From: Nitrospirota bacterium
Lineage (GTDB): Bacteria; Nitrospirota; UBA9217
Assembly: GCA_963751455.1 (NCBI GenBank)
Contig: CAVVUN010000012.1
Location: 192,001 to 256,000 of the forward strand
Reading direction: 5' to 3'
Length of the DNA stretch: 64,000 bases
The position numbers and the translations under genes are program-made. The notes under the pieces are model-generated. The model made no database searches. It was not told the DNA's origin and saw only the letters and a program-made list of their open reading frames with translations. How positions within the stretch are numbered: position 1 is the stretch's first letter; each line of letters starts with the position of its first letter. Of the stretch, positions 11,097-63,523 are shown piece after piece.

Positions 11097-11174
11097 TGGA
11101 CCTCTTCCCAGGGATTTAGACCAGCTTGATCCATAGACGAATTTCAATTTTCAGGTCTGACCCCGGAGGCCACC

Positions 11175-11297
11175 CATTCGATGAAGTTGAGGTGTGAACC
11201 GAAGCTTGGGATACAACCCCTGATTCCCATCTCCTGTTCCCTCAAGGAGGATGGATACCTGAATCGAAGCCGACTTTTGACTGAACGCCGGCTTTTT
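11175..11297 (+). pseudogene. Remnant of a zf-UBP gene 3' end plus terminator
   Basis: TTCGATGAAGTTGAGGTGTGAACCGA matches 4101-4126; terminator matches 4177-4207; follows the GGTCTGACCCC motif at 11154. Confidence 0.6.
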
Positions 11298-11356
11298 CCC
11301 TTCCTTGCTATTTTCTGCCGGAGACCCTATAATAATTGAAGCGCTTTCCCTCTGTC

Positions 11357-12520
11357 ATGAAAAAAAGCCCGCGCGACTTTCTTCAGAAAGCCTGGATGAC
11401 CCTGTCCGAGGCATCTTCATTCTTCCGGCGGAACAACGACCTGACCGCCTCCTCCTCGCTCGCTTTCTCGGCCACCCTTGCGCTCATCCCCGCCCTGTTC
11501 CTGCTTACGTTCCTGCTCGGCGCAATCGTCGGATCGTCCGCCCGGGCGCTCGCGCAAACGCGTGAGTTCATTACCCAGCTGATTCCCGCGTACAGCCAGG
11601 TGATCCTGAAAGAAGTGGACTTTATCGCCCGCCATAAGCGGGCCATCGGCATGCTGAACCTGTTCGTATTGTTCTGGAGCATTACTCCGCTGGTCGCCGA
11701 TATGCGGGTCTCCGTGGGCGCAATCTTCCGGAAAAGACCGACCAGGCCCTTTCTTCTTGAGAAGCTCTTCGACGCCGCCATCAGCATGGTCTTCCTGGTG
11801 GGGCTCGCTGCGGTTGCCGTCGCTGGCGTGGCGTTCACGATCATAAAACGGATCCAGCCGCTGCGGCAGATGCCCGGCAGCCTCAACGATGTTGCCTTCT
11901 TCGTAGTGGTCATTGGCGTTATCTGCGCCCTCTACTTCACCTTCTCGAAGCGCGCACGGTTCTTCCATCTGCTCGCGGGTGCTCTTGCTGCCTCCCTGCT
12001 GTGGTTTGCGCTCCGCCCGGCCTTTCACCTGTTTCTCACTTTTAACCCGGGTTATGGGTTCGCTTTTGGTTCGTTCAAATCGCTGTTCGTCATCTTCATC
12101 TGGATCTACATCTCGATGGCCCTGTTTCTGTTCGGCGCCGAGATCGCGGCAAGCCTCGGGAGGAACGAGTCGGCCAGCCTCAAGGGTCTTCCGGAAGACA
12201 GCACTGTTCCCCCCGGCGTTCTTTATCGCCGCATTGTCCGTTTCGAAAAAGGGAGCGTTGTTTTCAAGGAGGGGGATCCCGGAAGCGGGATGTTCTGTGT
12301 GCTCAAGGGGAGCGTATCAATCCGCAAAGGCGGGACGGAGATCGAGGTGGTTCCTCAAGGCAAGAGCTTTGGCAGCGTGTCATCCGTCCCGCCGTCTGTT
12401 CATCACGTGACCGCCCTGGCGCTCGAGGACCTGGAGCTGGAACATCTTCAGGGCCAAGTCTTTTTCGTTGCATCATCATCTGTGATGACACAGGAAGCAA
12501 TTTCAAGGAATAAGACTTGA
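11357..12520 (+). CDS. YihY/BrkB family membrane protein with a C-terminal cNMP-binding domain truncated by a mini-element
   Basis: ASSLAFS..LALIP, FGSFKSLFVIFIWIY..LFLFGAEIAA; VVFKEGDPGSGMFCVLKGSVSI; last codons derive from the element at 12450; TATAAT at 11328. Confidence 0.8.
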   Translation: MKKSPRDFLQKAWMTLSEASSFFRRNNDLTASSSLAFSATLALIPALFLLTFLLGAIVGSSARALAQTREFITQLIPAYSQVILKEVDFIARHKRAIGMLNLFVLFWSITPLVADMRVSVGAIFRKRPTRPFLLEKLFDAAISMVFLVGLAAVAVAGVAFTIIKRIQPLRQMPGSLNDVAFFVVVIGVICALYFTFSKRARFFHLLAGALAASLLWFALRPAFHLFLTFNPGYGFAFGSFKSLFVIFIWIYISMALFLFGAEIAASLGRNESASLKGLPEDSTVPPGVLYRRIVRFEKGSVVFKEGDPGSGMFCVLKGSVSIRKGGTEIEVVPQGKSFGSVSSVPPSVHHVTALALEDLELEHLQGQVFFVASSSVMTQEAISRNKT

Positions 12521-12526
12521 CACCCC
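12450..12526. mobile_element. ~75-bp TIR mini-element, copy 1
   Basis: AGGGCCAAGTCTT ... AAGACTTGACACCCC; internal sequence shared with 21392-21466 and 23164-23238. Confidence 0.8.
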
Positions 12527-12595
12527 ACGCTTCTTCGCTTTTCCCATTCTTATAGGGATCTTTATGAACTCAGAGAAACAAATGAGAACACGCTG

Positions 12596-12808
12596 ATGGA
12601 AGAATTCAAGCTCGAAAACAGCGAATTCATCCAACTGAACAACCTGCTCAAGGTCATCGGGTTGTGCGATTCCGGCGGGATGGCAAATGTTGCGATTGCA
12701 GAAGGCCAGGTCAGGGTCGACAGCAAAGTGGAGCTGCGTAAACGAGCCAAGATCCGCTCGGGGCAGATCGTGGAATTCGAGGGAAGGAAAATTATTGTTC
12801 GATCATAA
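12596..12808 (+). CDS. S4-domain RNA-binding protein (YaaA/YbcJ family)
   Basis: FIQLNNLLKVIGLCDSGGMA..I.EGQVRVD..ELRKRAKIRSG. Confidence 0.88.
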   Translation: MEEFKLENSEFIQLNNLLKVIGLCDSGGMANVAIAEGQVRVDSKVELRKRAKIRSGQIVEFEGRKIIVRS

Positions 12809-12975
12809 TACAGCATCTAACTTCAAAAAAGTCGCAAGCCCATTTCGGTCACAACGTCTCTCGAAAGTTTGCGCAAGAGTTTGTGAGTGCTGATGTCTAT
12901 TAACATGAGTCTGTTTCGGGACGGGTGGTTATTTTACCTTTTAAAAACTTATGACCTAGGGGCGATTGTGTAATG

Positions 12976-14506: not shown

Positions 14507-14753
14507 AGTGTGTCCTATTATATTCACAGGAAGATTTCACTATCAGAAAGCGATACGCAACGGGTGCAACAACGTCCCCTTCGGGGTTCTTGACGGTTCC
14601 GGCTGAAATCTTAGTGGACGAAGACGGTTGAGCTATCTCCGGTTGCTGTTGCTCCCGTCAGCGGATGAAGGGACTAAACTGTTACCTTTCCGCACGTTCA
14701 AGCAAAGGCAAGTACACTTCGGACGGAATGTCCCCACGATGCTGAGGTAATAA

Positions 14754-17700
14754 TTAGTGTTCCAAAACAATTCGAATAGTTCTTAGTAGCTCTTCCATTT
14801 TAAATGGTTTCTGTAAAAAGTGAGAACAGTACTGCTTCCAAAGGATTTTGTCATGTTCAACATCATATGCACTCATTAGAATGATCTTTGCATTCTTGTT
14901 AACTTTCGAAATTCTCTGTGCTGTTTCAGGTCCACTAAGTTTCGGCATTAACATGTCCATAATGACAATATCTATATCCGTTGCTCGACTGTATTTTTCA
15001 AGTGCCTCTACGCCATCATACGCGGATACTATTTTATAGCCTAAATTAGACAAAGTAGCTACTATCATCTCATGCAATACGGCTTCATCTTCAACGACAA
15101 GAATTTTCTCTGATCCTGAAAGAGGTTGATTTATATCGACTTCAAGACTCTCTTTTGAAGACAATACTTGAGCTTTGGGAAAGTAAATCTGAAATGTAGT
15201 ACCCTTACTAAGTTCACTAATGACGTTGACGAAGCCGCCCAAACTTTTCATTATCCCATAGACTATAGATAAGCCCAATCCTGTGCCTTTACCGACATCC
15301 TTCGTTGTAAAAAAAGGTTCGAATATCTTTGATGAAACTGACCGATTCATTCCGATGCCTGTATCCGTTACGGATACCATTACGAAATCACCAGGCGGGA
15401 GGGTCGCTCCTTCGACAAGTGCGCTATTGAGCGATTTTAAATTATCCACCGCAATTTCAAACATGCCACCGTTCGGCATAGCATCACGAGCATTCACTGC
15501 CAGATTTAATAGCACTTGTTCAATTTGGGCAATGTCGCCATTTATTGGCCATATATCATCACCCAAATCAGTCTTGATTTTAATAGTTTCAGGGAACACA
15601 CGCGTCAAAAGCTCCATTAACGAGTCGATTATATCTGGAAGATTGACGGTAGTCTGCTCAATACCTCCCCGGTCGAGAGCGCCTTTCCTTGCAAACGCAA
15701 GGAGACTACGTACTAAATTACTTGCACGATCTGTTGTTTCGCTCACCCGCTCAAATATTTGTTTTAAATCTCCTATCTGATCACCAGCGACTTTACTTAA
15801 CGCTAGTGACGTATAACCTGAGATTGTCACAATCAAATTTGAGAAGTCATGTGCAATCCCCCCTGCAAGTTGCCCAACCGCTTCCATCTTTTGAGCTTGA
15901 AGTAGTTGACGTTCCAAATTACGAACTTGATTTTCCTTCTCTTCTCCATACATAATGCTTTTCTCGATTAACTCTTCGTCTGCTCGGCTAAACTTAACTT
16001 GTTGAGCATAATGTAATTTTAGGAAACGAGCTCTTTCGAGTGGAATTAATGTTCTGAGATTATTGCAAATACTTCGTTCATGCTCCATAACTTCAAGGAT
16101 TCGTCTAATCTCTCGCTCTTCATCAGAAATCCAATGATCTATTTGAGGAATCAAATAGTCATGAGTCAATTCGTAAGACGAACCCAGTTGGCCTTGCACA
16201 ACTCTAACGAGACGTTGATATACTAATATGTCGAGAACTGCTTTTATTTGCTCGACCGTAGACATTGGTTCAAGTTGAATTAATAGAGAATCCAAATTGA
16301 GATGTTTTCTTAAACTATCAGGGCTGACGAAACATTTGAGGATTTCACGGGCTACGTCTCTATCAGTATGTCTGAAACTGCTGAGAACATATCCAATGTA
16401 ACTGGATAACAATTTCTCTGCACCACCAAGATCCTTATAAACACCTATGTCGATCTTTTTACACTCGACTGGTAGGGCCTTGAATACAGCAGTGCAGACT
16501 ATCTGAAGCTGAGTCGGCTCGACTCCTTCACGGTCGAGATCAGTTATTACTCCATGAACAAATGAGTCATCACATTGAAGCCCCACAGATTGAGCGGGGC
16601 GTCGGATTGCTACCTCCGCGGAGGATGATTTCAGCGAAGTCAAATGATAGCGATTGTTGAAAACATCAGGGATTATATGAGTTAAGTCGTTTAGACGAAC
16701 GAAATAATCTTCACGAACGGAAAGAAGAACGTGACATTGCACCATTTCATGGTTAATGATTGTTTTTAAAAATTCGCAGATTGGATCAAATGAAGATTGT
16801 TCAAAATCTTTGAACATTTGTTCGACTTGATCAAGCAATAGTACAAATGATTTGCGAGAAAGACGAACTTTATCCAATAAAATATTTGCTGCTTCTTTTG
16901 GCACCGCTACCAACCTATCCAGTGACGTGCTTAGTAATTTGTCACATTCTACAAGAATAGATTCCAATTTTGGATCAGTAAGGCGGCAATAAATAACAGT
17001 ATAGTCGCGGTCAAGGAGTTGGGGAAATACACCTGCTTTAAGTAAAGACGTTTTTCCTACTCCTGACTGCCCAAACAATATTAATAGTTTATGTGCAAGA
17101 AGAGATTGAAGGATAGAAACTGTTTCCTCTTCGCGACCGAAAAAAAGATCCTTATCTTGTACATCGTAATAGTCCAAGAATTTGTAAGGGCATGGATGAA
17201 TAACCGGGGTTTCTGAAGTAGTTGATGTATGTCTTCTCCCTTTTAGGGTATTAACCTCTTTAATCAGCTTTAGTAAAAGTGCCTGTAACTCAGCATAATG
17301 ATTTTTAGATTCGTAAGGAAGTATGGTTATATTATATTTATCTTTGAATAATTTAGGGAGAATTTTCCCGGCGTTTGGAACGAGAGCAAAATGTCTTCTT
17401 CCGAAACCTTTAAAAACTGATACCTGCTCATTTAATATTAAATTCAAATCGGGATCACGAAGCCCATATCCAATAAAAACAAGGGTCTTCATAGTAAAGT
17501 AAGCTGAAAGAGCAGTGCGATATGCAGGATGATGAATAATATCTTGATAGTCGCGATGTGTGAGGATGATTGTATCCACATCATCAACATGACCATGCAT
17601 TTTTAAAATGAAAAATTTCTTGTCGCTTGTCAGTCGTGCAAGTTGTGCAATATTTTTTTGAGTGTAAACTGGGGGAATACCGTTATCCCTGTTTTTCACA

Positions 17701-18077: not shown

Positions 18078-18234
18078 TTTTTGGCCTCAAATTAAAAGGT
18101 AATTCACTTTGTCATGTGGGGTCAAATCATATGACAAGTATTATTGTATGGGAGGTTTTGGCGGATGGGATAACTTCTCAATGTTGTTCTCCCGAGACTT
18201 TGCGCAGGCTAAAGGCGGTTCTCCTGATGAGGCG

Positions 18235-18263
18235 AGAATAACGTATTTTAAAGTAAGGGGCAA
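18235..18263 (-). promoter_or_regulatory. sigma70-like promoter TTGCCC-17-TATTCT facing the SIR2-STAND-kinase gene
   Basis: Hexamers and 17-bp spacing are identical in a homologous block at 56568-56596. Confidence 0.55.
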
Positions 18264-18458
18264 GGGAAAATATAAGGGGGCTTGCACAGTTATTAAAGGA
18301 TTCTGGGTGTTGCGAATATTTGAGCTCACCCATATTCTTCTGACCCTACATTCAAGGCGAAGATCGGGCCGAGATGCCGCCAGGAGACAGTAGAGTACGA
18401 GGACTCTTGAGAGTCAGTCAAGTCTTTCTCCGTGCATTTGCATATCGGCCATTTCAGA

Positions 18459-19247: not shown

Positions 19248-19988
19248 TTACTGCACCTGCGGCGAAGCAGGCTGGATAACTTCATCTTTCGGTTTTGGCT
19301 TTGCTTTTCTTTTTCTCGTGATCTTTACATCACCGATATCTTCCCAGGTTTCCTTAGAGATCATCTTCCTGATGTTATCCACCAATTCCTGCTCATCCAC
19401 TCTGATGCCGTGACTATTTTTTAAGCACGCCCGAATTACTTTTAACGTACTTTCATGAAATACGGCACGGACGATACTCCTTGGCGAAAGAGTTTTTACT
19501 TTTTCATAAAATTGTTCTATCTCTCCCTTCAGAACGCTTTTCCTATGCAGGATTCCCAGTACCTGTGCAGCCTCTTTAATATCGCACTCTTTAAGATCGA
19601 CTGACAGAACGAGATCACTCTGTATCCCTTCATCAAAACTTAAATGGTAAAGCTGCCAATAAATACCGTTCGTTAATAAGACCCATGGAACTCCTGAATT
19701 GGCTGCATAGTTTTCTGCTTGTTCTATATGTTTTTCTTTCAAAGCTATTCCGGCTTGCTTAATTTCAATGAAAAATTTCACTTTCCCGTTAAGCTTGATC
19801 GCATAGTCTACATTTCTTTCCTTAACGACATGCTCTCTCGATATTTCAGTAAACACATCGTAACCCAAAACATCTTCGAAAAATTTATTAATACGTGTTG
19901 AGGTCTCCGCTTCATTAATGCCTTGATCGTGCGCTTGTTGAAAGATCGGCAGAAATTTTTTCAAGTCCTTCAAAATATCGATAGGCAT
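19248..19988 (-). CDS. Type I restriction HsdR N-terminal-like (PD-(D/E)xK) endonuclease
   Basis: INEAET, VLGYD, VDYAI..FIEIK, QAENYA, LLTNGIYW. Confidence 0.8.
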   Translation of the reverse strand: MPIDILKDLKKFLPIFQQAHDQGINEAETSTRINKFFEDVLGYDVFTEISREHVVKERNVDYAIKLNGKVKFFIEIKQAGIALKEKHIEQAENYAANSGVPWVLLTNGIYWQLYHLSFDEGIQSDLVLSVDLKECDIKEAAQVLGILHRKSVLKGEIEQFYEKVKTLSPRSIVRAVFHESTLKVIRACLKNSHGIRVDEQELVDNIRKMISKETWEDIGDVKITRKRKAKPKPKDEVIQPASPQVQ

Positions 19989-21056: not shown

Positions 21057-21371
21057 TTAATCCAGCTTAATGCTTCTCAGCTGTTCCGCAGCATCTTCAG
21101 GGGCGATGGTGTTTACTGACGGGCCTGATCCCATTTCGAACCCTGTCGGGATGTTCGTCCTCGGGCAGATTTCTATGTGCCAATGGAAAAACGAGGTGCT
21201 CCCCGCATATTCTGGACCGTGGGGCACTGAATGGATGAAGAAATTATACTGCGCTCCGCTCAATCTGCTGTTCAGTCTCGCCATGGTCCTTTTGAAAAGA
21301 ACGGCCAGATCTGCAAGGTCCTGATCGCTTGACGAGAGAAAATCAGCGGAGTGTGCAAGCGGCAGAATATG
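21057..21371 (-). pseudogene. galT: Galactose-1-phosphate uridylyltransferase, C-terminal fragment
   Basis: HILPLAHSADF..YNFFIH..FHWHIEICPR..GFEMGSG..PEDAAEQLR; no start, cut next to the mini-element at 21392. Confidence 0.8.
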
Positions 21372-21391
21372 AGCATCTTCAGAGCATCTTC

Positions 21392-21466
21392 AGGGTCAAG
21401 TCTTTTTCGTTGCATCATCATCGTTGATGACACCGGAGTCGATTTCAAGGAGAAAGACTTGACCCT
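21392..21466. mobile_element. ~75-bp TIR mini-element, copy 2 (perfect 14-bp TIR)
   Basis: AGGGTCAAGTCTTT ... AAAGACTTGACCCT. Confidence 0.85.
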
Positions 21467-22909: not shown

Positions 22910-22986
22910 AGCGAGAGGTATCTTAAGGGGAAGAACAATATTTGTCAATTAAAGATGAAGAGTTGAGGGTCAGGTCTACTTTGATG

Positions 22987-23153
22987 GGAGATCGCGGCGA
23001 GCCTCGGTAAGAACGAGTCGGCCAGCCTCAAGATCCTTCCGGAAGACAATACTGCTCCGCCCGGAGTTCCCGATCGCCGCATTGTCCGTTTCGAAAAAGG
23101 AAGCGTTGTTTTCAAGGAGGGGGATCCCGGAAGCGGGATGTTCTGTGTGCTCA
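22987..23153 (+). pseudogene. Internal fragment copy of the yihY-cNMP gene between two TIR motifs
   Basis: Matches 12140-12305; preceded by AGGGTCAGGTCTACTTTGATG (22966-22986), followed by the mini-element at 23164. Confidence 0.8.
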
Positions 23154-23163
23154 GAACATCTTC

Positions 23164-23238
23164 AGGGCCAAGTCTTTTTCGTTGCATCATCATCTGTGAT
23201 GACACCGGAGTCGATTTCAAAGAGAAACACTTGACCCT
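23164..23238. mobile_element. ~75-bp TIR mini-element, copy 3
   Basis: AGGGCCAAGTCTTT ... AAACACTTGACCCT. Confidence 0.8.
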
Positions 23239-26732: not shown

Positions 26733-26839
26733 AGCTTCTCACCCTGAGAATCGAGCTCCCTGCAACTTATGAAAAGTCAAACATTATAGACCCTGCTGTT
26801 CTTGCGGCACAAGATGCTGTTGTTGTTATTGAAGCGCCC

Positions 26840-36114: not shown

Positions 36115-36411
36115 TTATTCCCCCCTTAATCTCAAGTAATGGTGCCTTTATACATAGTATAGGACATTGAGGATAGTTAGAAGGGAGAACTTTGGGGACG
36201 TTGTGGCCCGAGTGTCAAAAAAAATCAGTATCAAATCAAGGGCCAAATTCGGGGACGTTGTTTCTATTTATGCTTTCCTTTGTCGACCCATTCTGAAAAG
36301 ACTCAGAACCGAGCAGATCGAGCCTGTCGTTTCGAATCAAACCAGAACGAAATACCTGCAGGTATAATTTAATTATCAGGAATCTGAAAACCCTGATAAG
36401 GAGGTAATCAC

Positions 36412-36684
36412 ATGAGAAAACTGGTGGTAGGTACATTCCTGACACTTGACGAAGTGATGCAGGCGCCTGGAGGTCCTGAGGAAGACCGTAGCGGCGGGTT
36501 CGAACATGGCGGCTGGATAGTCCCGTATTCTGACGAGATGATGATGCAAGTCATGATCGAATGGATCCGGAGGGCGGACGCACTCCTGCTCGGGCGGAAA
36601 ACGTATGAGATATTTGCCGCCTATTGGCCACATGTTACCGAAGCCGATCCGATCGCTGCGAAATTCAACGCCGCGCGCAACTTC
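36412..36684 (+). pseudogene. DHFR/RibD-family gene, 3' truncated
   Basis: TLDEVMQAPGGPEED..LLGRKTYEIFAAYWP; homology stops at AAKFNAAR just before CGGGACGTAGTG (36685). Confidence 0.8.
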
Positions 36685-36712
36685 CGGGACGTAGTGACCG
36701 AAATGGACTATT

Positions 36713-37027
36713 CTATGCCGCTTTTTTCCCCTGTAGCGGTTTAATCCCATCTATTGTCTTTTTTGATTTCACCATCGCCCAGTAAAGATCGTAGTCGGCT
36801 TGGAGGCCGAGCCAGACATCCGGCGTTGTTCCCAAATAACGGGACAGGCGAAGCGCCATGTCCGGGCTGACGCTCCGCTTCTCGTTCAGAATCTCGTTGA
36901 TCGTCCGAAACGAGGTTTTAAGCGCCTTTGCGAGGTCTGTCTGTGTGATTCCGAGAGGCGATATAAAATCTTCTTTCAATATTAATCCGGGATGTGTGGG
37001 CGGTCTTTTCAACTGAAACTTGGCCAT
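36713..37027 (-). CDS. higA: HigA family antitoxin
   Basis: PTHPGLILKEDF..TQTDLAKAL..MALRLSRYLGTTPDVWLGLQ. Confidence 0.92.
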   Translation of the reverse strand: MAKFQLKRPPTHPGLILKEDFISPLGITQTDLAKALKTSFRTINEILNEKRSVSPDMALRLSRYLGTTPDVWLGLQADYDLYWAMVKSKKTIDGIKPLQGKKAA

Positions 37028-37119
37028 AAAATCTCCTTAATCAATCCAAGAACGAAATACAAAGTTTTTTGAGTCTTTTTTTATCCGTGCCTATCCGTGT
37101 TCATCCGTGGTTAAAACAG

Positions 37120-37182
37120 TTAATGATAATCCGTCACTTCGACTTCAGATGCTTCGCCGCTGCTGAACCTGAAAACGATATG
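37120..37182 (-). pseudogene. higB: HigB toxin C-terminal remnant
   Basis: Translates IVFRFSSGEASEVEVTDYH*, the typical HigB C-terminus, upstream of higA. Confidence 0.75.
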
Positions 37183-37189
37183 GAGAACA

Positions 37190-37210
37190 TTATAACACAT
37201 AGGGTTATAA
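37190..37210. promoter_or_regulatory. Putative higBA operator palindrome
   Basis: TTATAAC-N7-GTTATAA directly upstream of the higB remnant. Confidence 0.55.
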
Positions 37211-37332
37211 GGCAAGAACTATTTACAAGGATGTCAAGCTAAAGTACGATGCAATCTCCCGTCCTTATTGAAGACCAGGCCCGTCCTGTTTTTTATAAAG
37301 GGTGTATAATCGAAAAATAAAGGACGAAAGGG

Positions 37333-37719: not shown

Positions 37720-38104
37720 AGGAGCTCGTTCAGCGGAATAACCCGAAATCAAGGAAGCTTACGGGTCACCTCAATGGAATATGGTGATTCAGGTGAACTT
37801 CGGGAAATTGATAAAGAATACCTTAGCAGGAGCAGGGGGGCGCTTCTTTACTTTTGAGGTATGTCAGCTAAAGAAGCGACCTCCCCATGCTATACCAGCC
37901 ATCAGGCGAAGCGTGCCGGTTGCCTTCTAAGATTCAGAATCCGATTGTCTGCGGACTCCTCGGAACAGGGGTTCATGCTGCGCTGCCTATGATACACGAT
38001 GCAAGATGCATGATACAGGATGCATGATGGAAGCGGCGAAGCTCGAGATACCATTGTACGATATCGAAGTCGGACCACGCTAAGATATTTAGCTTGGTCC
38101 GATC

Positions 38105-38287
38105 CCTAATACTTTAAGTCAGTCCGTTCGTAATAATGCGGACGATAAGCAAGTTAAATCAAAGCAGGCGCCGACAGGGCCATCGTCTGAAGCGAGACTT
38201 CAGGAACTCAAGAATCTAAAGGCAAAAGGCCTGATAACCGGGAAGGAATACGAAGCAAAAAGAAACGAGATTTTAAAAAAATTATGA
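38105..38287 (+). pseudogene. 5'-truncated SHOCT-domain gene
   Basis: Frame reads ..EARLQELKNLKAKGLITGKEYEAKRNEILKKL*; no start, begins at the TGGTCCGATCCC end motif. Confidence 0.7.
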
Positions 38288-41364: not shown

Positions 41365-41509
41365 AATTAAGCATCGGGGGAGCGCTGCTGCGCCCCCCCG
41401 ATGCCAGCTTAAGTTTCAAGTTGCAGGTTTCAAGTTTTTAAGAGATCGGACTTGGTAGCCGCAGGCTTCAGCCTGCGTACTTTTGAAGGGTTCCGGAAAT
41501 GCAAGGTAC

Positions 41510-41578
41510 GATATCGGGGTCGGACCACGCTAAACTACTGGTTTTCAAAAATTTATCATTCCAATAATAGGCATTTTC
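41510..41578. repeat. 69-bp dispersed repeat starting at the GGGGTCGGACCA end motif
   Basis: Near-identical at 57585-57653, partial at 38060-38085. Confidence 0.85.
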
Positions 41579-41600
41579 GGAGCCCATAGGGTCAGGTCTA

Positions 41601-41730
41601 CTGGGGTTGTTGCCTAAATCAAATTTGTGCTTCGACAGGCTCAGCACTAACGGAATAGTTTATGATTTCAAATGCAATGCCGTTCGCCCTGAGCTTGTCG
41701 AAGGGTGAACGGGGTTTAGGCAACGGCCCG
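41601..41730. mobile_element. 130-bp MITE with TA duplication, inserted in a RAYT terminal repeat
   Basis: GTTGCCTAAA...TTTAGGCAAC ends, internal TTCGACAGGCTCAG / CTGAGCTTGTCGAA palindrome; removal restores GGGTCAGGTCTACTTTGATG. Confidence 0.75.
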
Positions 41731-41745
41731 TACTTTGATGTCATT

Positions 41746-42070
41746 CTACTTCTTCGCGTTCACAATCCTGCTGATCGAAGTAAAATACATGCCTAGATGA
41801 TCAGCAACCTCACGCTGACGGTAGCCGTGCTTCTCAACCAATTGTTTGATTGCTTTATTGCGTTTCGTCATGTTCCCGAGTGTTTTCTTACTGAATAGCT
41901 TCTCGAGGGAAGGCCTGTCTACATACCGCTGACTCCGGGAAATCTCAGGGATATCTTTGTTTTTCTTGAGATGATACACGAATTGATCGACAAAGCCCTC
42001 CTCCCCCAGGAGTGATTGACCTCTCACCTCTGTCCAGATCGTTGGCTTCCCTATTCCCCAGCTTACGAAC
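41746..42070 (-). pseudogene. RAYT-like (Y1) transposase C-terminal HTH fragment
   Basis: VRGQSLLGEEGFV..EISRSQR..HGYRQREVADHLGMYFTSISRIV; followed by the terminal repeat. Confidence 0.8.
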
Positions 42071-42094
42071 TGGCGGTATTGCCATAGCTGGACC

Positions 42095-42230
42095 ACTTCC
42101 AGTCGTCAACCGAATCGACAATAACATCCCGCAGTACATGATCGGCGCAGATGGGGCGCTCACAACCATGACCCCGGCCACAGTCGCAGGAGCACGGGTC
42201 CCTACTCCATCACGACTGTCGGCAGCTATC
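42095..42230 (+). pseudogene. Beta-propeller (lactonase-like) gene 3' remnant
   Basis: VVNRIDNNIPQYMIGADGALTTMTPATV. Confidence 0.5.
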
Positions 42231-42566
42231 AATAAAAGGAGAACAGCCAAGGGAAGCATTACGATGCGCATCAAAGCAATGCCTTCTGACTTATTCTTCT
42301 TATTCTCCAATCAAAAAACCGCCAGGGATATTGATCCTTGGCGGTTTTTTTCTTCAGCTCATCGTTTTTCGTCGCGGCCTCCAAAGAGCCTAAGATGTTT
42401 CCAGAAAAAATCATTCCTAAACTGAAAAGTGATTTTCAAGACACGATCCTATTTGGTTCCGGCCCCATTTGGTTCGCACGTGCGCGGTTCATGATTAACG
42501 GATTTCCGGTTTTACGTTGCTTATTTCGTAAGTCCATTTCCGCGTCACTTCAAAATGATGCACGAT

Positions 42567-43040: not shown

Positions 43041-43356
43041 TTCAGTTTCTCCTCTCAGAAGCATTTTAAATCGGATAACCTATCCTTATTTAGGATAGCA
43101 TGCATTATTGACTCTTGTCAAAAACCTAGGGTCACCCATTTATTTTATAAATAGCACGATCGTTTCAGATCAGGTTCAAGAAGCAAATAGCAGAGGTCAG
43201 AGCGAGGAGACGAATATAGGATGCAGGATAAAGGGTTTAAAGATGACCAGGACCGGAATTAATTTCTTAACAGTGACCTTTTCCCTACTTGCTTGGTTCG
43301 CCCCTGGCTCCTTGATTTTTCCTGTTAAACTGAGAGCCCATAGCAAGCCCATAGAA

Positions 43357-43566
43357 TCAGGTCTACTGGGATTGTATCGCTTATTGACGTGCTGAAGGGT
43401 GTTTAGAAAGGTTTGGCGATCTGTGTCACTCTTAAAGACGGGCCTTTTCTCGTTTCCACGGGAAGTGACATGATAGACTGCGCCAGCGTATTCGATGCGA
43501 AGCGGACGGCCATGGAGCGGCTATAGCACAGAATGGACGCAATGGCACGAAAGTAGACCTGACCCT
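43357..43566 (-). mobile_element. TIR-bounded RAYT-like N-terminal remnant
   Basis: 43513-43371 reads MAVRFASNT in one frame and IEYAGAVYHVTSRGNEKRPVFKSD..LNTLQHVNKRYN in the homologous frame; ends TCAGGTCTACT (43357) and AAAGTAGACCTGACCCT (43550-43566). Confidence 0.8.
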
Positions 43567-43949
43567 ATGATGTTCCTAAAGGTTCCTGGTTTTTAGATGC
43601 AGAAAGTTGCGTTTACTGTCAGGCCGCGGGCTAAACATTCGGCGTGAGTATAGAAGAAACCTTCCAAAGAAGAGGGACGTCACCGGAGTTGAACCAGCAG
43701 ACTACGCGACCGTATAGAAAGGTAACACATTTCACTAGAGAGAATTATCAGATTGATTGATAGCTGTAATTAGAATTTGACAAAGGGAAGCGGCTTGAGT
43801 TATACGAACTGTAAATGATTAAACTTCGCAACAATTGATTTGAATGACGTAACGTATATTTTCGAAAATAAAGCTCGCTTCCATCCGGAGAAAAATGGCC
43901 GGGCTGCGGAAGGAAATCGTTCGGCGCGGCTGGTCTTTTTTACCATACA

Positions 43950-51447: not shown

Positions 51448-51945
51448 TCAGGAAGCAAATCGTTCCATTAAAGACTCTATAAATTTGCCGGCATATTGTC
51501 CATTCCCAGTGGGTTCAGCAAACAGCTTTACATCGCCGGTGACCCGTGCATTGCCAAAGAGCAGGGCGTTTCCGGCGCCTTCAGCTTTTGCCAACACCTC
51601 GGCAGCCCCGGTTATGACTGCATCGCCGTGCACACGCGCACATCCGTGGATTTTGGCATCGTCCTGGACTTTGGCATTGCCGAAAACCCTCGCACTCCCG
51701 AAGATTTGCGCGCTGCCCGACACTTCCGCCCTGTCCGATATCGAGGCGCTCCCGAATACAATCACATCGTCGCTGACTTTGCAATGACCGCAGACCTTTG
51801 AGCAAGGACCGACATAGACTGTGTCCGCTACTTGTGCAGTCTCTGCAATCAGGCCTCCCCCGTTCGGATGGTGGTGATATTTTACTCCGTCGATTTCTAA
51901 AACCGGTCCCTTCGAGACGTTGAGGGTCAGGTCTACTTTAAACAC
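51448..51945 (-). CDS. Hexapeptide-repeat (left-handed beta-helix) protein with an N-terminus derived from a TIR
   Basis: HPNGGG..VYVGP, repeated (V/I)xGxAx; first residues MFKVDLTL are the translated terminal repeat. Confidence 0.7.
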   Translation of the reverse strand: MFKVDLTLNVSKGPVLEIDGVKYHHHPNGGGLIAETAQVADTVYVGPCSKVCGHCKVSDDVIVFGSASISDRAEVSGSAQIFGSARVFGNAKVQDDAKIHGCARVHGDAVITGAAEVLAKAEGAGNALLFGNARVTGDVKLFAEPTGNGQYAGKFIESLMERFAS

Positions 51946-52239
51946 CGTTCAACTGACGCATGCCGAGAGCAAGGTTGCCGTCCGGAGTCTCGATGAGAAG
52001 ATGATAATGGTTGGTCATGAGACAGTAGGCATGACAAATCCAGTTGTAGCGTTTGTTGACGTGCTGAAGCGTGTTCAAAAAGTTCTGACGGTCCGCGTCA
52101 CTCTTAAAGACGGGCTTTTTCTCGTTTCCACGGGAGGTGACATGATAGACTGCGCCGGGGTATTCGATGCGGAGAGGACGGGCCATGGAGCAACTATAGC
52201 AGAAAGTGGACACAATGACAAGAAAGTAGACCTGACCCT
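51923..52239 (-). mobile_element. 317-bp element: perfect 17-bp TIRs around a truncated RAYT-like transposase (52186-51938)
   Basis: AGGGTCAGGTCTACTTT...AAAGTAGACCTGACCCT; MARPLRIEYPGAVYHVTSRGN..YCLMTNHYHLL (HUH), catalytic Tyr region missing. Confidence 0.92.
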
Positions 52240-52283
52240 GAAAGTTGCTTCCCATCAATAAGCAGCAAGACAAAGCCCATCAT

Positions 52284-56100: not shown

Positions 56101-56567
56101 ATGATCCTCCCGGGGAAAGAAATTTTGCAGACTCTCAACTGCTGTTTTAAAATAGAAATTTTACTAATTGAAAGACAATCAGAAAATCCCGATTTCCGGG
56201 CGCCAAAGATTTTTAGCAATAATAAAATACGGAAAGATAGTTAAGGTAAGATTGAAAAAGAATTTATTACAAACTCGAACAATAAAAATTATACGCAAGA
56301 GAAAATTGGAAGTCAACATAATTTTATTTGTAATTTCCATAAAAAATGTACCAAAACTGAAACAAAATTTCTTTGTTCCCGAGGGGGATTTCCGGAAAGA
56401 ACTTTGGGGAACGTTGGTTCTCAAAATGCTTTCCTCCGTTTTCATTTTGATAGATGAATTGCTGGGAGGTGTTCGGCGACATGGAAAAACTTCTCAAGGT
56501 GTTCTCCCGAGGCTACTACGCTGAGTTCCGAGTTTCAATTTCCAAGCTTAATTGTGCTAATGAGGCG

Positions 56568-56596: not shown

Positions 56597-57683
56597 GGGA
56601 AAGTTAAAGCAGACGTGAGACGACAATTAGTCGACCAAGAAGCGACACACTGCACTCCCGCTAGTGCAGTCGTAACCGACTGGGTTGCAGGCGAGGTGAT
56701 GGGGTGACGCCGAGCGTTACGAATGCACCTTCGCCACCTGGTGAGTTCCCTTCGGCAGGAGCCGGTGCCTTCCTTTGCAAGTCGCGGGATTCAATCCGGC
56801 TAAGCCGCACGCCGTATTGGGCTTAATTTCTTTTTGACCTCTCTTGCCGAGCACTTTGTCTTCGATCGGCTTTTTCCATCCGGACCCGGATGAGAGTCTT
56901 TGTCGCTCAGGCAACGAACATGGCCAAAGGAACGTAACGTAGTACTGCGGAATTGATTTTCATAAGTTTGACCTCCTGGCGCATTTCCCGGCGCCTTATG
57001 CTTCTGAATTTAGCGCTCATCGGAGGCGAGTCAATTGACCCAATGTATTAGCCGGCCGTGGGCTTTTGACCCGACGAAAGACAAGGAGGATAAGCCAACA
57101 GATTTTCGCCGCGTGCATCTTCTGAGGAGATCCGCCAGCAGCTGAATACGCCCTATAATGCGACCTCCCCGCGACTGACCCCTTCCCCGTCCAAAGCCGG
57201 GATCATATGTCGCAGCGGGATTGGGTCACTTTCTTGCCCTGACGCAGGTTTTAGCGTCGCTTAGGGTTCTCGCGCCCAGCGGGTGCGAGAGCGCAGGATG
57301 GCACGCAAGAAAGGCGACAAAAAGAGCTGTGAAGAATGAGAAATGCAAAAAGTTCCACTCATTATGGAGAAGAGCCAAAAGAAAAGATCTCGAACATCAA
57401 GGCATGAAGTTCAGCCTGTATTCGCGCTTTGGCTCATGTTCACTGGCCGCAAGCAAGATCCTTATCTTTTTCGCACCAGCCGCTCGCAGCACCACCCAGA
57501 CATGCCAAAGACTCAGAACCCGATTGTCTGCGGACTCCTCGGACACGCGATTACATCGCTGATATTCTGCATATCCAGATACTGGATATCGGGGTCGGGC
57601 CACGCTAAACTACTGGTTTTCAAAAATTTATCATTCCAATAATAGGCATTTTCTTAAAGATTCTCCCTTCAATTGAAGCGCCC

Positions 57684-59120
57684 TTACCCCGCCGGCTGAG
57701 GCACCGATCCTGAGTAAAACGGCGCGCACTTTTCTCGCTGAATGAATTTCCTCGCGCTCTTGAGGGCGTTTGACATTGGCCCGGTAATTGACTTAAGCGC
57801 GCTTGCCTCGATCTCCGGCTTGAGCAATGGTCCATGCACTTTCTGCCTGTACACAGCGCACCCCCGCTTATCAAGCACTGCTACGGATGTGTCAATAAGC
57901 CGGTCGTTGACGAGATTCAATCCTCCCCTCATGGCGATCCTGTGCTTGTTTGAAGCAAGGGCCACATCCGACGCTTCCGCAATGCCGTGATCGACTTTCC
58001 AGATTGCAACGAGTTTTTTGATGCTCCCTTCTCCGCCTCGTGACTCTTCGTGATACAGACGTCCGAAATTATAGCTCTTGGTGAGCAACGGTCCGAACGG
58101 GCCCGCAAGTAAGAACGCCCCGGCGTCCACAAGGTTGAAGTTCTGGCAGCGCTTGAATTTTGAGACAAGGGCATCGATATTGGCGCCGGAGAACGTAACA
58201 TTTTCGCCTTTCAGGGAAACGTCGCCGCTGAGCGACCGTTTCATCTCATCCATGCTCTTCCCCTTTGCAGTCAGGTTCGCGGAAAAGTCCGTCAGCCCTT
58301 CTATGGTTTTTGCAGGGATGTTTTTGGGCGAGAATTCCCGGATAAGATCTGCGATTCTGAACCGGCTGAGAGCACAGAACACCCGGTAACGAGGGGCTGC
58401 ACCCGTCGCGTCCAGGTGCAAGCTCCCTTTCCCGCTCCCCCCGAAAACGTTCATCCTGGCCCGTTCGATATCGAACATTCCCCTTCTTCCTGTTATTTTC
58501 ATCGCGATGTTCGATACGGCGAGGTTGTTGCTCTTGACTGTCCTGCACCTGATATCCCCGGTGAATGAAATGTTCCTGAGCAGCTCCGCTGAATCCGACC
58601 CGCTGTATGAAACGTTTCGGAGGGTCAGATCAAGGCGTTCCGCTTCAATCTTTTCTCCGGATAACTTATCTGTAAAAACAAGCGTCCCCTGAAAGATGGA
58701 CGACGCCGGTATCGAAAGCGGTTTTTCCGACGGCGCCGGCCCTGGTTTGTCAAAATTGAACGTTCCGTTCCGGTAACGGACTACGGACATGGCCGGCCTC
58801 ACGAACTCGACCCGTCGTATCCGGACTTCGCCCCGCACGAGGGGAATGAGTTCCAGGCAGATCGTCATCTTCTCAATAGTGGCGACATTGGTTCCCTTGT
58901 TTCGGACGCTGACGTCCTCCATCGATATCGCGAACCCGGGAGTAAAAACGATGCCCATCCTGCCGTTGATCCGGACATCCATTCCCGCAGCCTGCGAGGC
59001 AGCTGCTTCGACCTGCGGTTTAAAGGTTTTGATTTCGAGCAGGAGAGCCGCGATGATCGCTGCAACAAGGACGATTACGATCGTTGCTATAAATATTATT
59101 TTTTTCTTCTGTACTATCAT
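57684..59120 (-). CDS. AsmA family protein, copy 2
   Basis: MIVQKKKIIF + TM anchor; 57672-59288 near-identical to 26828-28443. Confidence 0.8.
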   Translation of the reverse strand: MIVQKKKIIFIATIVIVLVAAIIAALLLEIKTFKPQVEAAASQAAGMDVRINGRMGIVFTPGFAISMEDVSVRNKGTNVATIEKMTICLELIPLVRGEVRIRRVEFVRPAMSVVRYRNGTFNFDKPGPAPSEKPLSIPASSIFQGTLVFTDKLSGEKIEAERLDLTLRNVSYSGSDSAELLRNISFTGDIRCRTVKSNNLAVSNIAMKITGRRGMFDIERARMNVFGGSGKGSLHLDATGAAPRYRVFCALSRFRIADLIREFSPKNIPAKTIEGLTDFSANLTAKGKSMDEMKRSLSGDVSLKGENVTFSGANIDALVSKFKRCQNFNLVDAGAFLLAGPFGPLLTKSYNFGRLYHEESRGGEGSIKKLVAIWKVDHGIAEASDVALASNKHRIAMRGGLNLVNDRLIDTSVAVLDKRGCAVYRQKVHGPLLKPEIEASALKSITGPMSNALKSARKFIQREKCAPFYSGSVPQPAG

Positions 59121-59471
59121 TTTTCACATTCGTCGAACTTGACAACGTAAATTTTGATTTGACGTTGGAATGGGTAGCGAGAGGGCGCAATGCGGACCTC
59201 CTGCAAAACTGCAGTTGATGTTATTTTACGGGCGGGTTAGGGGAAAGTATGTGATTTTGATTACGGAGGTCGCTGATATTTTTCCGGGAACAGGTGGTTG
59301 AGATAAAAGGGCTCATAGGACATAATGACATTCCGGACACGACATCCCAAAGTTCCCCATGGCGGGAATAGTTACGGACAGGATTTTGTCGGGGGTCAGC
59401 GTAACCTTCCCCCGATCCTGTCCGCCTCGAAGTTTTCTCACGCTGCATGGACGATTCTTCTCAGTGATCGG

Positions 59472-60163: not shown

Positions 60164-60399
60164 GATTGATCTCCTTTCCTTAAATGTATTTCCATTAATC
60201 AAATTCTGCGAAATACATCCATGCCTTATGGAAAACGTCATCCTACCCATATTATGACACCGCTGCCTGTAAGACGTCTTATGTCGTACAGATGCTCTCA
60301 TAACCCCAATATTTGCCGCAATCAAAGTCGAGCATGAAGATCATAACGCTCCGACAAAAGTATTTGCGCATTAAGGTTCACTGGCAATCACGCCGCCCG

Positions 60400-60643
60400 G
60401 GGGGAGGCTTCGTCCGGAGGAAAGGTCAAGTACATCCTCAATCAGCCGGTAAATCCAGGAAATCTTCATCACCGTTCCGCCTGGGATCAGAGAGGGGCAG
60501 AAGATCAAACTCAAAGGTCTGGGTGAAGAGGGAAAGCACGGGGGTGAAGCGGGCGATCTTTTTCTCAAGGTCAAGAATTCGACGGCCGCTTTTTGAAAGG
60601 GTAAAAGGAATATTGAGGGGATGAGTCAAACATTACAGACCTG
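60400..60643 (+). pseudogene. Copy of dnaJ 3' end (copy C) followed by a TIR-like end
   Basis: Matches 26501-26700 with indels; ends GTCAAACATTACAGACCTG. Confidence 0.85.
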
Positions 60644-60816
60644 CCTCTATTGATTCTAAGATGCTCCCCGTTTAAACAAAAGTCCAACAGTATGGACCTG
60701 ACCCCAGGGTTGTTTTGAATGGATATTATGAATGCAGACGATGAAGTCAACGCAAAAAAAGCAAATATAAACATTAAAGACCCTGACCCGATATATTCTC
60801 CTCAGGGAGGTATCGA

Positions 60817-61011: not shown

Positions 61012-61060
61012 CAGAAAAGGATCCCTTTGCTTTATATGAAGAAGGGAAAGGAGATATGTC

Positions 61061-61495
61061 ATGACCGAGCAGGAAAAAAATATAGAGATTGTGAAAGATA
61101 TGTTCTCCGCGTACGGCAGGAAAGACCTGAAGACTCTCGTTGCCCATGTGGCGGAAGACAAGGTCGACTGGAAGTGCCCCGTGACCGGCGATATCTCCGG
61201 CATGGGCTTCGCGAAACCCCGGCACAACCGGCATGAGGTGGAAAGCTTTTTCAAGGAATTCCTGGACGCGGTCGAGCCTATCGAAGAAAAGCCCGTGCGC
61301 TTCACCGCCCAGGATGACCGCGTGATCGTGGAAGGGATCGAGCACAGCAAGGTCAGGTCCACGGGCGTCGAATACAAGGCCGACTTCGTGATGGTGATCG
61401 AGCTGAAGGATGGGAAAGTGACGCAGTTTCACTATTACCTGGACACGGAAGATATGAGGCGGGCGCTGCGGGGGGAAGTCAGCAAGGCGGCCTGA
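61061..61495 (+). CDS. SnoaL-like / NTF2 family protein
   Basis: NIEIVKDMFSAY..DRVIVEG..STG..LKDGKVTQFHYYLDT. Confidence 0.88.
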   Translation: MTEQEKNIEIVKDMFSAYGRKDLKTLVAHVAEDKVDWKCPVTGDISGMGFAKPRHNRHEVESFFKEFLDAVEPIEEKPVRFTAQDDRVIVEGIEHSKVRSTGVEYKADFVMVIELKDGKVTQFHYYLDTEDMRRALRGEVSKAA

Positions 61496-61560
61496 CAACG
61501 AACGCGAGGCCGGCAAAATCAACTTAAAGGAAAAGGAGAGGGATTATCCCTTAAAACAGT

Positions 61561-61956
61561 ATGAAGAACAGAGAACAAATATATAAAGAGATGGAAGAGA
61601 AGCTCGGGCTCGTCCCGGGTTTCCTCAAAACAATTCCGGACTCGACTCTTGAGCATGAGTGGGAGCTTTTCAAGGAAATACAGCTCGGGGATGGCGCAGT
61701 CCCGAACAAATACCGCGAGCTTATAGGCTTGGGGATATCGGCAGTTTCCAAATGCAGTTACTGCACGCTCTACCATACCGAGATGGCGAAGCTGTTCGGC
61801 GCTACCGATAAGGAAATTGAGGAGGCCGTGCATTATGCCAAGGCAAGCGCCGGGTGGAGCGCATACTTGAACGGCATGCAGGTCGATCATGAACAGTTCA
61901 GGGACGAACTGAGGCGCGCCGGAGAACATGTTAAGAAAATGAAGAAAGCCGCGTGA
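61561..61956 (+). CDS. Carboxymuconolactone decarboxylase / AhpD family protein
   Basis: KYRELIGLGISAVSKCSYCTLYH (CxxC), GATDKEIEEA. Confidence 0.9.
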   Translation: MKNREQIYKEMEEKLGLVPGFLKTIPDSTLEHEWELFKEIQLGDGAVPNKYRELIGLGISAVSKCSYCTLYHTEMAKLFGATDKEIEEAVHYAKASAGWSAYLNGMQVDHEQFRDELRRAGEHVKKMKKAA

Positions 61957-62383
61957 CCACACCATTAAAGAGCGAGGCCAGAAAGGAACTCTGAGCATTT
62001 ACCCTGTGCTCAGGGTTCCTTTTGTCCAACCGTGACAGCAAGAGAAAATAATCCGGAATTTCATGGATAACCATATCGACATTGACTTTAAAAAGACTAT
62101 TGTGATTAAGAGGAAGAGAAGTTGAAGCGATCCGGGAAGTTCCGCTCGGATAAAGCAATCTTCGGACAGCAGAAAAGATTTCACTACTATGCACGTTGAC
62201 TCAAGTGAAACGGCTATCGATTAAGAATTGAAGGATGAGAAAAACCCCAGCTATTCTCTAGCCATTTCGGTCACTACGTCCGCAACGGCGTCCCCGGTCG
62301 AACCGCCAGATTACCAATGTTCTTCCTCTGGAATCTTCCGTCCCCAAAGTTCTTCAGGCCTCACAGTCTCCGCGTCAGTCTCA

Positions 62384-62872
62384 TCACGCTGCTTCCCGCT
62401 GATCATAGGCCTGCTGCAGCTTCTTCATGTCGAGCTTGGTCATTTTGAGCACCGCCTTCATGACCCGCTTCGCTCCCTCCCTGTCCTTCATCAGCTCTCC
62501 GAGAACAGCGGGGGCGACCTGCCACGACACGCCGTACTTATCTTTCAACCAGCCGCAAACGTTCTTCTCTCCGCCCTCGGACAGCTTCTCCCAGAGCAGG
62601 TCGATCTCTTCCTGCGTATCGCACTTGATCATGAACGAGATCGCCGGCGAGAAGGAAAATGTCGGACCGCCGTTCAGAGCCATAAAATCCTGCCCATTCA
62701 GATGGAACTCGACGGTCATCACCGACCCGGCAGGCATACCCGCCGCTGCTGCGGCCTCCTCGGTGTAGCGGGTGGTCGTGATGATCTTCGAATTCTTGAT
62801 AAGGGAAACATAGAATTTTACGGCTTCTTCGGCCTGGGTATCAAACCATAAGAAGGGGGTAATGTTCTTCAT
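62384..62872 (-). CDS. VOC / PhnB family (3-demethylubiquinone-9 3-methyltransferase-like)
   Basis: ITPFLWFDTQAEEA..MALNGGP..CGWLKDKYGVSWQV. Confidence 0.92.
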   Translation of the reverse strand: MKNITPFLWFDTQAEEAVKFYVSLIKNSKIITTTRYTEEAAAAAGMPAGSVMTVEFHLNGQDFMALNGGPTFSFSPAISFMIKCDTQEEIDLLWEKLSEGGEKNVCGWLKDKYGVSWQVAPAVLGELMKDREGAKRVMKAVLKMTKLDMKKLQQAYDQREAA

Positions 62873-63023
62873 GGCGAATTTCTCCTTTCGATTGTTTCGT
62901 TAATTTAATTATACATGCTGGAGGACAGAGGTGCCTTGTCGGTGTCGCTTCGCGTCTGTAGGGACATGATGAGGACCTGGCAATCAGTGAAGCGGTCAGG
63001 AGTGGATTGGAAATGTAACTGGC

Positions 63024-63523
63024 CTATTTAACAAGGCCACTCGGGACACTACGTCCCCGCTCCGGTTCCGAAAGCTTTTTCATGGCTTTTATTTTAACAG
63101 GGTTCAAGTGAATGTAGCGTGAGAGGACGGAAAGATATTCGTTCTTATCCACGAGAACGCTTTTGTATCTGCCTTGGTACAGATGTCCGACCCGGTCATG
63201 GCGACGATTGTAATAACCGGTATAGGTTATGTTAAACTTGCGCATAAACTCGGAAAGGTTGGCTTTGGGGGTTTCGAGAAGCAGATGAAAATGGTTGGAC
63301 ATAAGGACGTAACTGTAAAACTTGATTGAGTAGATATTTATCGACTGAACCAGGTATCTGAAGAAACCGTTTCCGATCCTCATCATCCTTGAATATAGCC
63401 TGTCGTTCATTTCCGCGGCAAGTAACATGATAGACTGCATTGGGGTATTGTATTCGAAGGGGGCGCGCCATGTCCGATCATGGCAGAAAGGAGTAAACTT
63501 GTCAACAGCAAAGATTTGACCCT
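63024..63523 (-). mobile_element. RAYT-like Y1 transposase pseudogene (63471-63024) with upstream TIR
   Basis: MARPLRIQYPNAVYHVTCRGN, 1-nt frameshift near 63354, MSNHFHLL (HUH), GHLYQGRYKS, YIHLNP (catalytic Tyr); AAAGATTTGACCCT at 63510-63523; cut at CACTACGTCCCC (63047-63058). Confidence 0.9.

Follow-up and report, generated by a model that had tools for sequence, protein, structure and literature searches.

The stretch analysed here, called the window throughout, comprises 64,000 nucleotides of a Nitrospirota genome assembly (GCA_963751455.1, contig CAVVUN010000012.1), namely G000:C12:192001-256000, where G000 denotes the source genome of 5.72 Mb in 15 contigs and the contig itself measures 706 kb. 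From 11 kb on, the window is an accessory region with unrelated genes in both orientations. It is an accessory-gene island containing about 30 ends of TIRtrons, elements that carry TIRYT transposase genes between terminal inverted repeats (TIRs); these ends lie within 53 kb, belong to at least four intermixed families and in many cases sit exactly at gene breaks. Up to four genes separate successive ends. No tRNA anchor was detected in the window or the adjoining 40 kb, no Rfam family matched within the window, and no same-genus genome was among the relatives returned for the source genome.

End motifs and gene breaks in the window

Two recurrent motif families had been proposed in a first-pass annotation, made from the letters alone, as the ends of RAYT-like elements, and both are real. 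The 17-mer AGGGTCAGGTCTACTTT occurs exactly at 22966 (+), 51923 (+), 43550-43566 (-) and 52223-52239 (-), and with 2 mismatches at 41588; GGGGACGT(A/T)GT is exact at 14569, 36194, 36251 and 63048, carries 1 mismatch at 36685 and is more degenerate at 56406. Their counts exceed expectation more than tenfold, with 12 GGGTCA-type matches in the window against 0.3-0.9 expected (2 of the 12 are chance matches inside AsmA) and 4 occurrences of the second family against 0.2-0.4. An alignment scan with 33 end probes, all taken from outside the window, yielded 19 matches at or above the score cut-off of 36, versus 0 in three 64-kb controls (one shuffled window and two other windows). Of the positions in the earlier list, 11154 and 18346 are weak and received no score in the probe scan, and 41746 and 63024 are ends of open reading frames (ORFs), not motifs. 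Ends overlooked there were found by the scan at 12860, 18415, ~26793, ~34006, 60647 and 62282, and by eye at ~62345. Scan matches and strict-pattern matches together gave 32 anchors, the working set for break statistics. The window is the densest end cluster of its genome, with 18 strict matches in 53 kb compared with 10 and 7 in the next clusters and a median of 0 (115 bins), and one strict end pattern is present in 52 of 60 genomes of the family. Hairpins like those of repetitive extragenic palindromic (REP) sequences were ruled out at single ends, six of which fold no better than shuffles (z -0.3 to 1.5). The ends and adjoining genes are listed below; MITE denotes a miniature inverted-repeat transposable element, and features without a single strand are marked unstranded.

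11342..12440, +: yihY/BrkB-cNMP gene, truncated at its C-terminus 11-12 nt outside the GGG at 12451
12439..12526, unstranded: copy 1 of a 75-bp non-autonomous TIR pair (MITE), including the outer 10-11 nt
12835..12860, -: B-type end, degenerate, whose inner side looks toward the 3' end of an S4-domain gene
14555..14579, -: B-like end upstream of nucleotidyltransferase-like/TPM genes
18118..18445, +: C-type end at 18118 and what is left of a TIRYT right end at 18415; the motif at 18346 is weak
21057..21371, -: C-terminal piece of galT, corresponding to aa ~268-370 of a 371-aa homologue
21371..21466, unstranded: MITE copy 2; its outer 11 nt are tandemly duplicated in front of it
22957..22987, +: solo end stub, inner side joined to the yihY fragment
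22988..23153, +: internal yihY fragment of 166 bp, 91% identical to 12140-12305, ends on both sides
23153..23238, unstranded: MITE copy 3
26770..26798, -: slipped TIR-like end that comes after dnaJ, with counterparts at ~33985-34011 and ~60625-60650
36194..36277, +: B-like ends at 36194 and 36251
36412..36678, +: N-terminal half of DHFR/RibD_C, truncated on the outer side of the end at 36686
36676..37235, unstranded: B-type right end with higA (36713-37027, -), a higB remnant and its promoter
38057..38287, unstranded: two GGGTCGGACC-type ends facing inward over 39 bp, followed by a SHOCT remnant that lacks its start
41506..41578, +: part of a GGGGTCGGACC-type end, truncated 11 nt outside the end that follows; it recurs at 57585-57653
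41578..41745, +: right end of a TIRtron, interrupted by an unrelated 128-bp repeat element (41603-41730) that has a 4-nt direct repeat
41746..42107, -: remnant of a TIRYT C-terminus, internally deleted at ~42083; neither break coincides with an end
42108..42241, +: C-terminus of a beta-propeller repeat gene
43330..43575, -: shrunken TIRtron, left end 43566, TIRYT aa 2-48
51448..51912, -: hexapeptide-repeat gene, truncated at its N-terminus 11-12 nt outside the end at 51924
51913..52249, -: mini-TIRtron in which TIRYT aa 1-82 lie between perfect 17-bp inverted ends
56396..56435, +: degenerate B-like end
60670..60800, -: two ends, 60705 of left-end type and 60789 of right-end type
62257..62356, -: B-type end at 62282, plus another, degenerate end recognised by eye at ~62345
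63036..63532, -: C-family TIRYT N-terminal remnant (to aa 138), left end 63523, cut at the B-like end 63058 with offset -1
63532..63940, -: N-terminal piece of galT, reaching aa ~140 and truncated 10 nt outside the end at 63522

Alignment to homologues places breaks at ends for yihY, both galT halves, the hexapeptide-repeat gene and the RAYT at 63058, as the first-pass annotation had claimed. Homologues read on past the join in yihY (12438-12440), the galT C-terminal piece (21371), the galT N-terminal piece (63532), the hexapeptide-repeat gene (51911-51913) and the yihY fragment (23153), and two non-coding joins lie at 41578 and 34017. These seven mapped joins fall -10 to -12 from the GGG, or at -22 by way of one duplicated 11-mer; the earlier reading had not noticed that joins are displaced outward from the motif by about 10 nt. 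DHFR is indeed cut at an end, with the exact base ambiguous between -8 and -1, and the SHOCT remnant fits a motif end, its break position being unmappable. The zf-UBP remnant named alongside them, for which no coordinates had been given, was not confirmed: a family search covering 66 ORFs and 275 short frames of the window matched no frame to that family, and the sole candidate, the beta-propeller C-terminus at 42108-42241, is more than 500 bp from any scored end. On the inner side, joins occur 15-27 nt inside the end (22988, 43371, 51939 and higA at 36710). A strict rule of joining after a C was rejected, as C precedes 4 of 8 window joins and T or an ambiguous base the other 4.

Ten of the 16 curated coding breaks lie at an end (10/17 with the higB deletion), compared with 10% expected (p ~5e-7), where the null is the chance of falling within 30 nt of an anchor in DNA outside intact genes. 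The uncurated automatic list, which includes natural gene ends and was reduced by hand to the 16 coding breaks, has 12 of 60 breaks at ends (p 0.016 under the same null, 1.5e-6 over the whole region). The proposed proximity of motifs to breakpoints is well above chance, and the statement that most broken genes end at motifs holds for the curated list and fails for the raw one.

Several further features accompany these joins. A possible, very degenerate end pair at 35505-35560 directly follows the pseudogene break at 35508; it had no score, so the break was counted as lacking an end. The outer 10 nt of the MITE (21371-21381) match the last 10 nt of the galT N-terminal piece (63532-63541) at 9 of 10 positions, which may be target-derived or coincidental, since similar outer bases occur at other ends. 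In the shrunken TIRtron (43330..43575) a degenerate copy of the 41588 end stands at ~43354 with its outer bases reiterated, and because this copy keeps the first bases of the 128-bp inverted-repeat element, the order of events is given; relatives of that element (41603-41730) occupy seven other places in the source genome. An AsmA-family segment of 1617 bp is duplicated at 99.3% identity (26828-28443 and 57672-59288), and its borders do not coincide exactly with any end. The intact dnaJ (25905-26732) has three degraded partial copies, all of its 3' portion, at 28449, 33866 and 60377-60641, and a slipped TIR-like end follows the intact gene and two of the three copies.

TIRYT transposases and the flanks of their ends

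Judged by sequence, the window ends are the terminal inverted repeats of TIRtrons. The source genome contains 33 Y1_Tnp matches, nine of them full-length frames of ~280-326 aa with inverted repeats at their ends; all nine lie outside the window, whose own copies are fragments. The first-pass annotation had been right that the window holds no intact transposase and that its ends belong to TIR-flanked RAYT relatives; intact enzymes in the same genome had gone unnoticed there and emerged when the search it proposed was run. They cover three end families, with intact copies for example at C1:545597-546463, C9:160374-161342 and C6:112471-113448, and both motif families of the window have an intact owner. 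The proteins match PF01797 and NF047646 and bear HUH and Y-x-x-x-NP motifs, with H60, H62, Y119 and N123-P124 invariant in three intact source-genome proteins, to which the window fragments are 57-91% identical. A domain search of these three proteins detected a C-terminal helix-turn-helix (HTH) in family A (HTH_28/HTH_23) and, weakly, in family B (HTH_38/Bac_DnaA_C), and none in the family C protein. No solved structure matched TIRYT by sequence; an AlphaFold model from a three-sequence alignment, poor (predicted local distance difference test score, pLDDT, 57) and used solely to confirm the fold, had E. coli TnpA-REP (4ER8) as its closest match at low confidence.

TIRYT genes of the source genome are flanked by TIRs, and a flanking inverted repeat was present in 54 of the 67 relatives examined (of 79 fetched, those covering the protein from its start over at least 200 aa). 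TIRtrons and TIRYTs were described in 2013 by Di Nocera et al. (PMC3733652). Domain layout places the enzymes probably in TnpA-Y1 subclass 2.1 (Quentin et al. 2018, PMC6006769) and in RAYT group 1, which with group 6 comprises the most insertion sequence (IS)-like RAYTs (Bertels et al. 2017, PMC5581495). Among named relatives, those nearest to the source-genome transposases are Nitrospirota metagenome-assembled genomes; the TIRYT search patterns matched about 9,700 stored stretches in the GTDB collection, and a single TIRYT record came from the plasmid collection. Whole elements have moved recently, as four family-A copies at separate loci share 95-98% identity. One TIRtron (L118, G000:C3:359725-361812) is broken after codon 44 by a 454-aa reverse transcriptase ORF, labelled group II intron-type from our reading of the translation; the 2-kb inverted pair on this contig had been considered as captured host cargo, which was rejected when it proved to be the TIRtron with that gene. 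Another copy, on contig C1, is interrupted by IS200, and a head-to-tail dimer (L111, G000:C1:184297-186125) has a single right end between its copies.

A tandem duplication lies just outside the TIR at 24 of 90 ends flanking GTDB TIRYT genes, compared with 90/13,400 random positions (0.7%), 34/1,839 look-alikes (1.8%) and 0-7.8% at shifted positions. In 20 of the 24 the duplicated run starts at -8 to -13, with variable stops from -3 to +17, the pattern expected from a nick near -10, short extension and resealing. The source genome has 16 duplications among 305 loose-pattern matches, 12 starting at -9 to -12, and metagenome ends show 23/98 versus 1.5% under relaxed criteria, with some chance coding matches among the 98. 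The 13 family-A ends compared in the source genome, not independent of one another, hardly vary from -9 to -1, have mostly purines at -10 to -12 and are mixed further out; outer bases beyond the TIR are not conserved across species. Copying of outer bases between the two ends of an element was considered and is weak across GTDB, the similarity of the outer 10 nt being 0.37 within elements and 0.29 between unrelated ones. Target duplication was undetectable in 33 two-ended elements, which resembled mismatched pairs. Among 81 GTDB flank frames, 19 match Pfam; five domains are clearly cut at the join and three probably, and none of the cut domains in these 19 frames continues on the opposite flank, several opposite flanks being short. 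In the source genome, 11 of 60 flank frames match Pfam, mostly cut transposases plus an HsdM fragment, and the GTDB cases extend the pattern of domains cut at outer edges to other phyla.

Proposed one-ended joining and its rivals

At 36686 a B-type end adjoins the 3' end of higA in a direct fusion, and the same junction recurs in two further genomes, G005 and G021 (2 of 12 other family genomes having a higA match). Outside the end lie the cut DHFR in the source genome, in G005 the end of a gene for what we take to be a restriction-modification methylase, and a cut frame in G021, next to a tandem duplication, that we interpret as an HNH nuclease; neither of these last two labels comes from a family match. 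Past the higB promoter all three sequences differ, and the comparison also revealed the higB deletion. A unit of end and higA without a second end fits one-ended movement, and the junctions suggest that the end likely carried this toxin-antitoxin module along, a single comparative example of the one-ended movement of adjacent DNA. The 166-bp yihY fragment with ends on both sides provides a second, internal example of capture. The two galT pieces are collinear, lie 42 kb apart and are each joined to an inward-facing end, so bracketing the central 42 kb; the assembly lacks the 130 codons between them. Growth of the block inside galT is possible, its two ends belonging to different families, and as galT synteny with relatives is absent on both sides, it cannot be dated as one insertion. 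Solo stubs are common, as 25 of 30 B-type end loci in the family genomes have no detected TIRYT beside them and a clear partner end is nearby in 4 of 22 examined.

We consider it fairly probable that the breaks were made by TIRYT acting from intact copies elsewhere and joining one end at a time to foreign DNA. With its C-terminal HTH the enzyme would bind the TIR, which has no hairpin, in double-stranded form; that single ends do not fold makes such recognition probable. It would nick the inward-reading strand ~9-12 nt outside the TIR, leaving a 5'-phosphotyrosine, and the free 3'-OH would prime copying, with resealing after a short extension leaving a duplication. Transfer of the 5' end to a foreign 3'-OH would truncate the target gene at -10, its other half being lost or moved, and longer copying would move the element, a stub or inner-side DNA, as in the one-ended transposition of IS91 or Helitrons. 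The mosaic would then be a by-product of repeated local events together with ordinary deletion and duplication, with no programmed cassette system. Nick position and strand, the 5'-phosphotyrosine, double-stranded recognition and priming are what we infer from the pattern of DNA scars.

A number of observations weigh against this account. A strict duplication test was passed by 1 of 21 window motif matches, and breaks without an end occur at 28449, 33866, 60400, 35508, 42083 and 42108, with the higB deletion as a seventh. The RAYT break at 63058 sits at offset -1. The list of 16 breaks is our own curation, and one end counted in it, 43354, lies outside the 32 null anchors. The higA case is a single example in which two of the three genomes are of the same genus, and separate deletions on each side could mimic the movement. 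Locus L079, flanked by PIN and Phd genes that look intact, could represent a clean insertion between genes; no filled/empty pair was found among 122 metagenome loci, and a clean two-ended insertion followed by erosion is compatible with the absence of an empty-site allele.

Such erosion is the core of an unlikely alternative, an ordinary insertion-sequence graveyard in which clean two-ended TIRtron and MITE insertions were followed by host deletion up to their borders, including ~10 extra bases. Near-identical whole copies at several loci do attest to whole-element movement, many breaks and duplications lack any end, and other clusters lie among IS, group II intron and restriction-modification remnants. 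Random erosion, however, would not halt at one offset; the outer 10 nt are hardly shared (0.37 versus 0.29), yet duplications start there across phyla; cut domains never continue on the opposite flank in the 19 Pfam flank frames; and the 25 of 30 B-type loci without a detected TIRYT do not fit. Misassembly or chimeric binning at short repeats is very improbable: contamination of the source genome is 5.4% and the 1.6-kb duplication is 99.3% identical, but the contig spans 706 kb, joins could not be held to one offset by repeats as short as 17-75 bp, and independent assemblies show the same offset, the duplications and the end-higA junction again.

The first-pass annotation had gone further and likened the ends to an integron without integrase, recombination sites that acquire, truncate and reorder single genes. 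As break-and-join sites they stand far above chance, an end with higA(B) recurs in three genomes, and no integrase family was found among the 66 ORFs and 275 short frames; the integron-like acquisition and reordering of single genes was not upheld. A platform of dedicated sites that capture, order and exchange single-gene cassettes under selection is distinctly improbable. It would account for the densest cluster of the genome (18 strict matches versus 10 in the next), for the central 42 kb between collinear galT halves with inward-facing ends at both joins, and for end plus higA in three contexts, and it echoes the association of subclass 2.1 genes with a procA array, later qualified by a caveat of its authors (10.1101/2020.03.09.984088). 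Against it, the ends lack polarity (15 + and 17 -), at least four families are mixed, an end lies within 200 bp on each side of just 3 of 30 intact genes and none of these pairs faces inward, at least six breaks and the 1.6-kb AsmA duplication have no end, and genes are often destroyed by ends, not preserved. The proposed comparison with relatives also spoke against it: homologues of AsmA, dnaJ, CMD, SnoaL, VOC, hexapeptide and galT genes were not end-bracketed in 20 relative loci, in a non-exhaustive search whose end pattern missed a B end in L009. Rather doubtful, finally, is the idea that TIRtron ends form an integrase-free gene-acquisition device, in which one 25-bp end with TIRYT in trans would move inner-side DNA, new joins would be drawn to existing ends, the island would accrete (42 kb inside the split galT) and hosts would keep imported toxin-antitoxin, defence-like and signalling genes.

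Some of the genes in the island merit separate mention. A 1107-aa protein (14754-18077, -; GC content ~39%) joins SIR2, nSTAND1 NTPase, histidine kinase and receiver domains and is possibly a defence-like sensor coupled to two-component signalling; three near-full-length homologues among its top matches (44-47% identity) indicate that the fusion is rare but real. An NTPase-TPR-BTAD protein of 1127 aa (30377-33760, -) is intact, with related pieces just past the window. An internal 143-bp piece of the HSDR_N gene (19620-19762) recurs at G000:C12:260501-260640, just past the window, at 94% identity, and bases near this repeat resemble IS200-type ends by eye. In a genome of another genus (G041; L131-L133), dnaJ, VOC and DUF2959 match the window at 85-92% DNA identity, which suggests an accessory gene pool common to both.

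Comparison with known systems

Integron cassette arrays have an integrase, attC hairpins and a common orientation, and form a variable row of accessory genes. The window shares the variable accessory-gene row punctuated by short repeats and differs in having neither integrase, attC-like hairpins nor common orientation, and in its broken genes. The enzymes of IS91 and the Helitrons belong to other HUH families. With their one-ended rolling-circle transposition (PMC13181058; see also PMC4778049) the present elements share HUH chemistry and the absence of target duplication, and the movement of adjacent DNA when termination fails would be a further likeness. The ori and ter ends of IS91, by contrast, differ from each other and contain palindromes, and its target is a tetranucleotide (PMC13181058). 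The window ends are alike and hairpin-less, and either can join. By analogy, the mechanism may resemble IS91 one-ended transposition, yet the elements would not belong to the IS91 family.

HUH enzymes produce a 5'-phosphotyrosine and a 3'-OH able to prime copying or to attack in strand transfer (PMC8266576). REPtrons with TnpA-REP of groups 2 and 3 have a related enzyme and 5'-phosphotyrosine cleavage away from the bound site (Corneloup et al. 2021, PMC8266576); they need a GTAG-tagged single-stranded DNA hairpin and cut at CT or CA, whereas the single ends of the window are unfolded. In picocyanobacteria, subclass 2.1 tnpA-REP genes and fragments occur in a variable procA array and were proposed as its diversifier; that case differs in lacking inverted repeats and in involving one gene family at fixed spacing, and the causal claim was withdrawn or qualified by the authors in a note (10.1101/2020.03.09.984088).

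Published TIRtrons are the closest match, with a Y1 HUH domain and C-terminal HTH, G-run inverted repeats, dispersed ends that are single, dimeric or grouped, and no REP hairpins (PMC3733652). Most, not all, of them have GGGGWSAS in the TIR (PMC3733652), a consensus that the present ends fit loosely: AGGGTCAG, AGGGTCAA, GGGGTCAA, GGGGTCGG and GGGGACGT each show 1-2 differences from it. The text of the 2013 and 2018 papers describes no cleavage position, duplication outside the TIR, gene truncation or cargo, and leaves TIRYT activity open, with no bench test (PMC3733652, PMC6006769); the literature found, mostly openly accessible papers and the main text of these two, likewise holds no report of an outside cut, duplications or cargo for TIRtrons. 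The scars of the source genome predict the strand, position (9-12 nt outside the TIR) and outcome of cleavage. If one-ended movement is true, TIRtrons, whose TIRYT genes are widespread, would join IS91 and Helitrons as HUH movers and breakers of neighbouring genes, working from two alike, hairpin-less ends. The element type has been known since 2013, and the window is an unusually dense example of it with testable mechanistic footprints.

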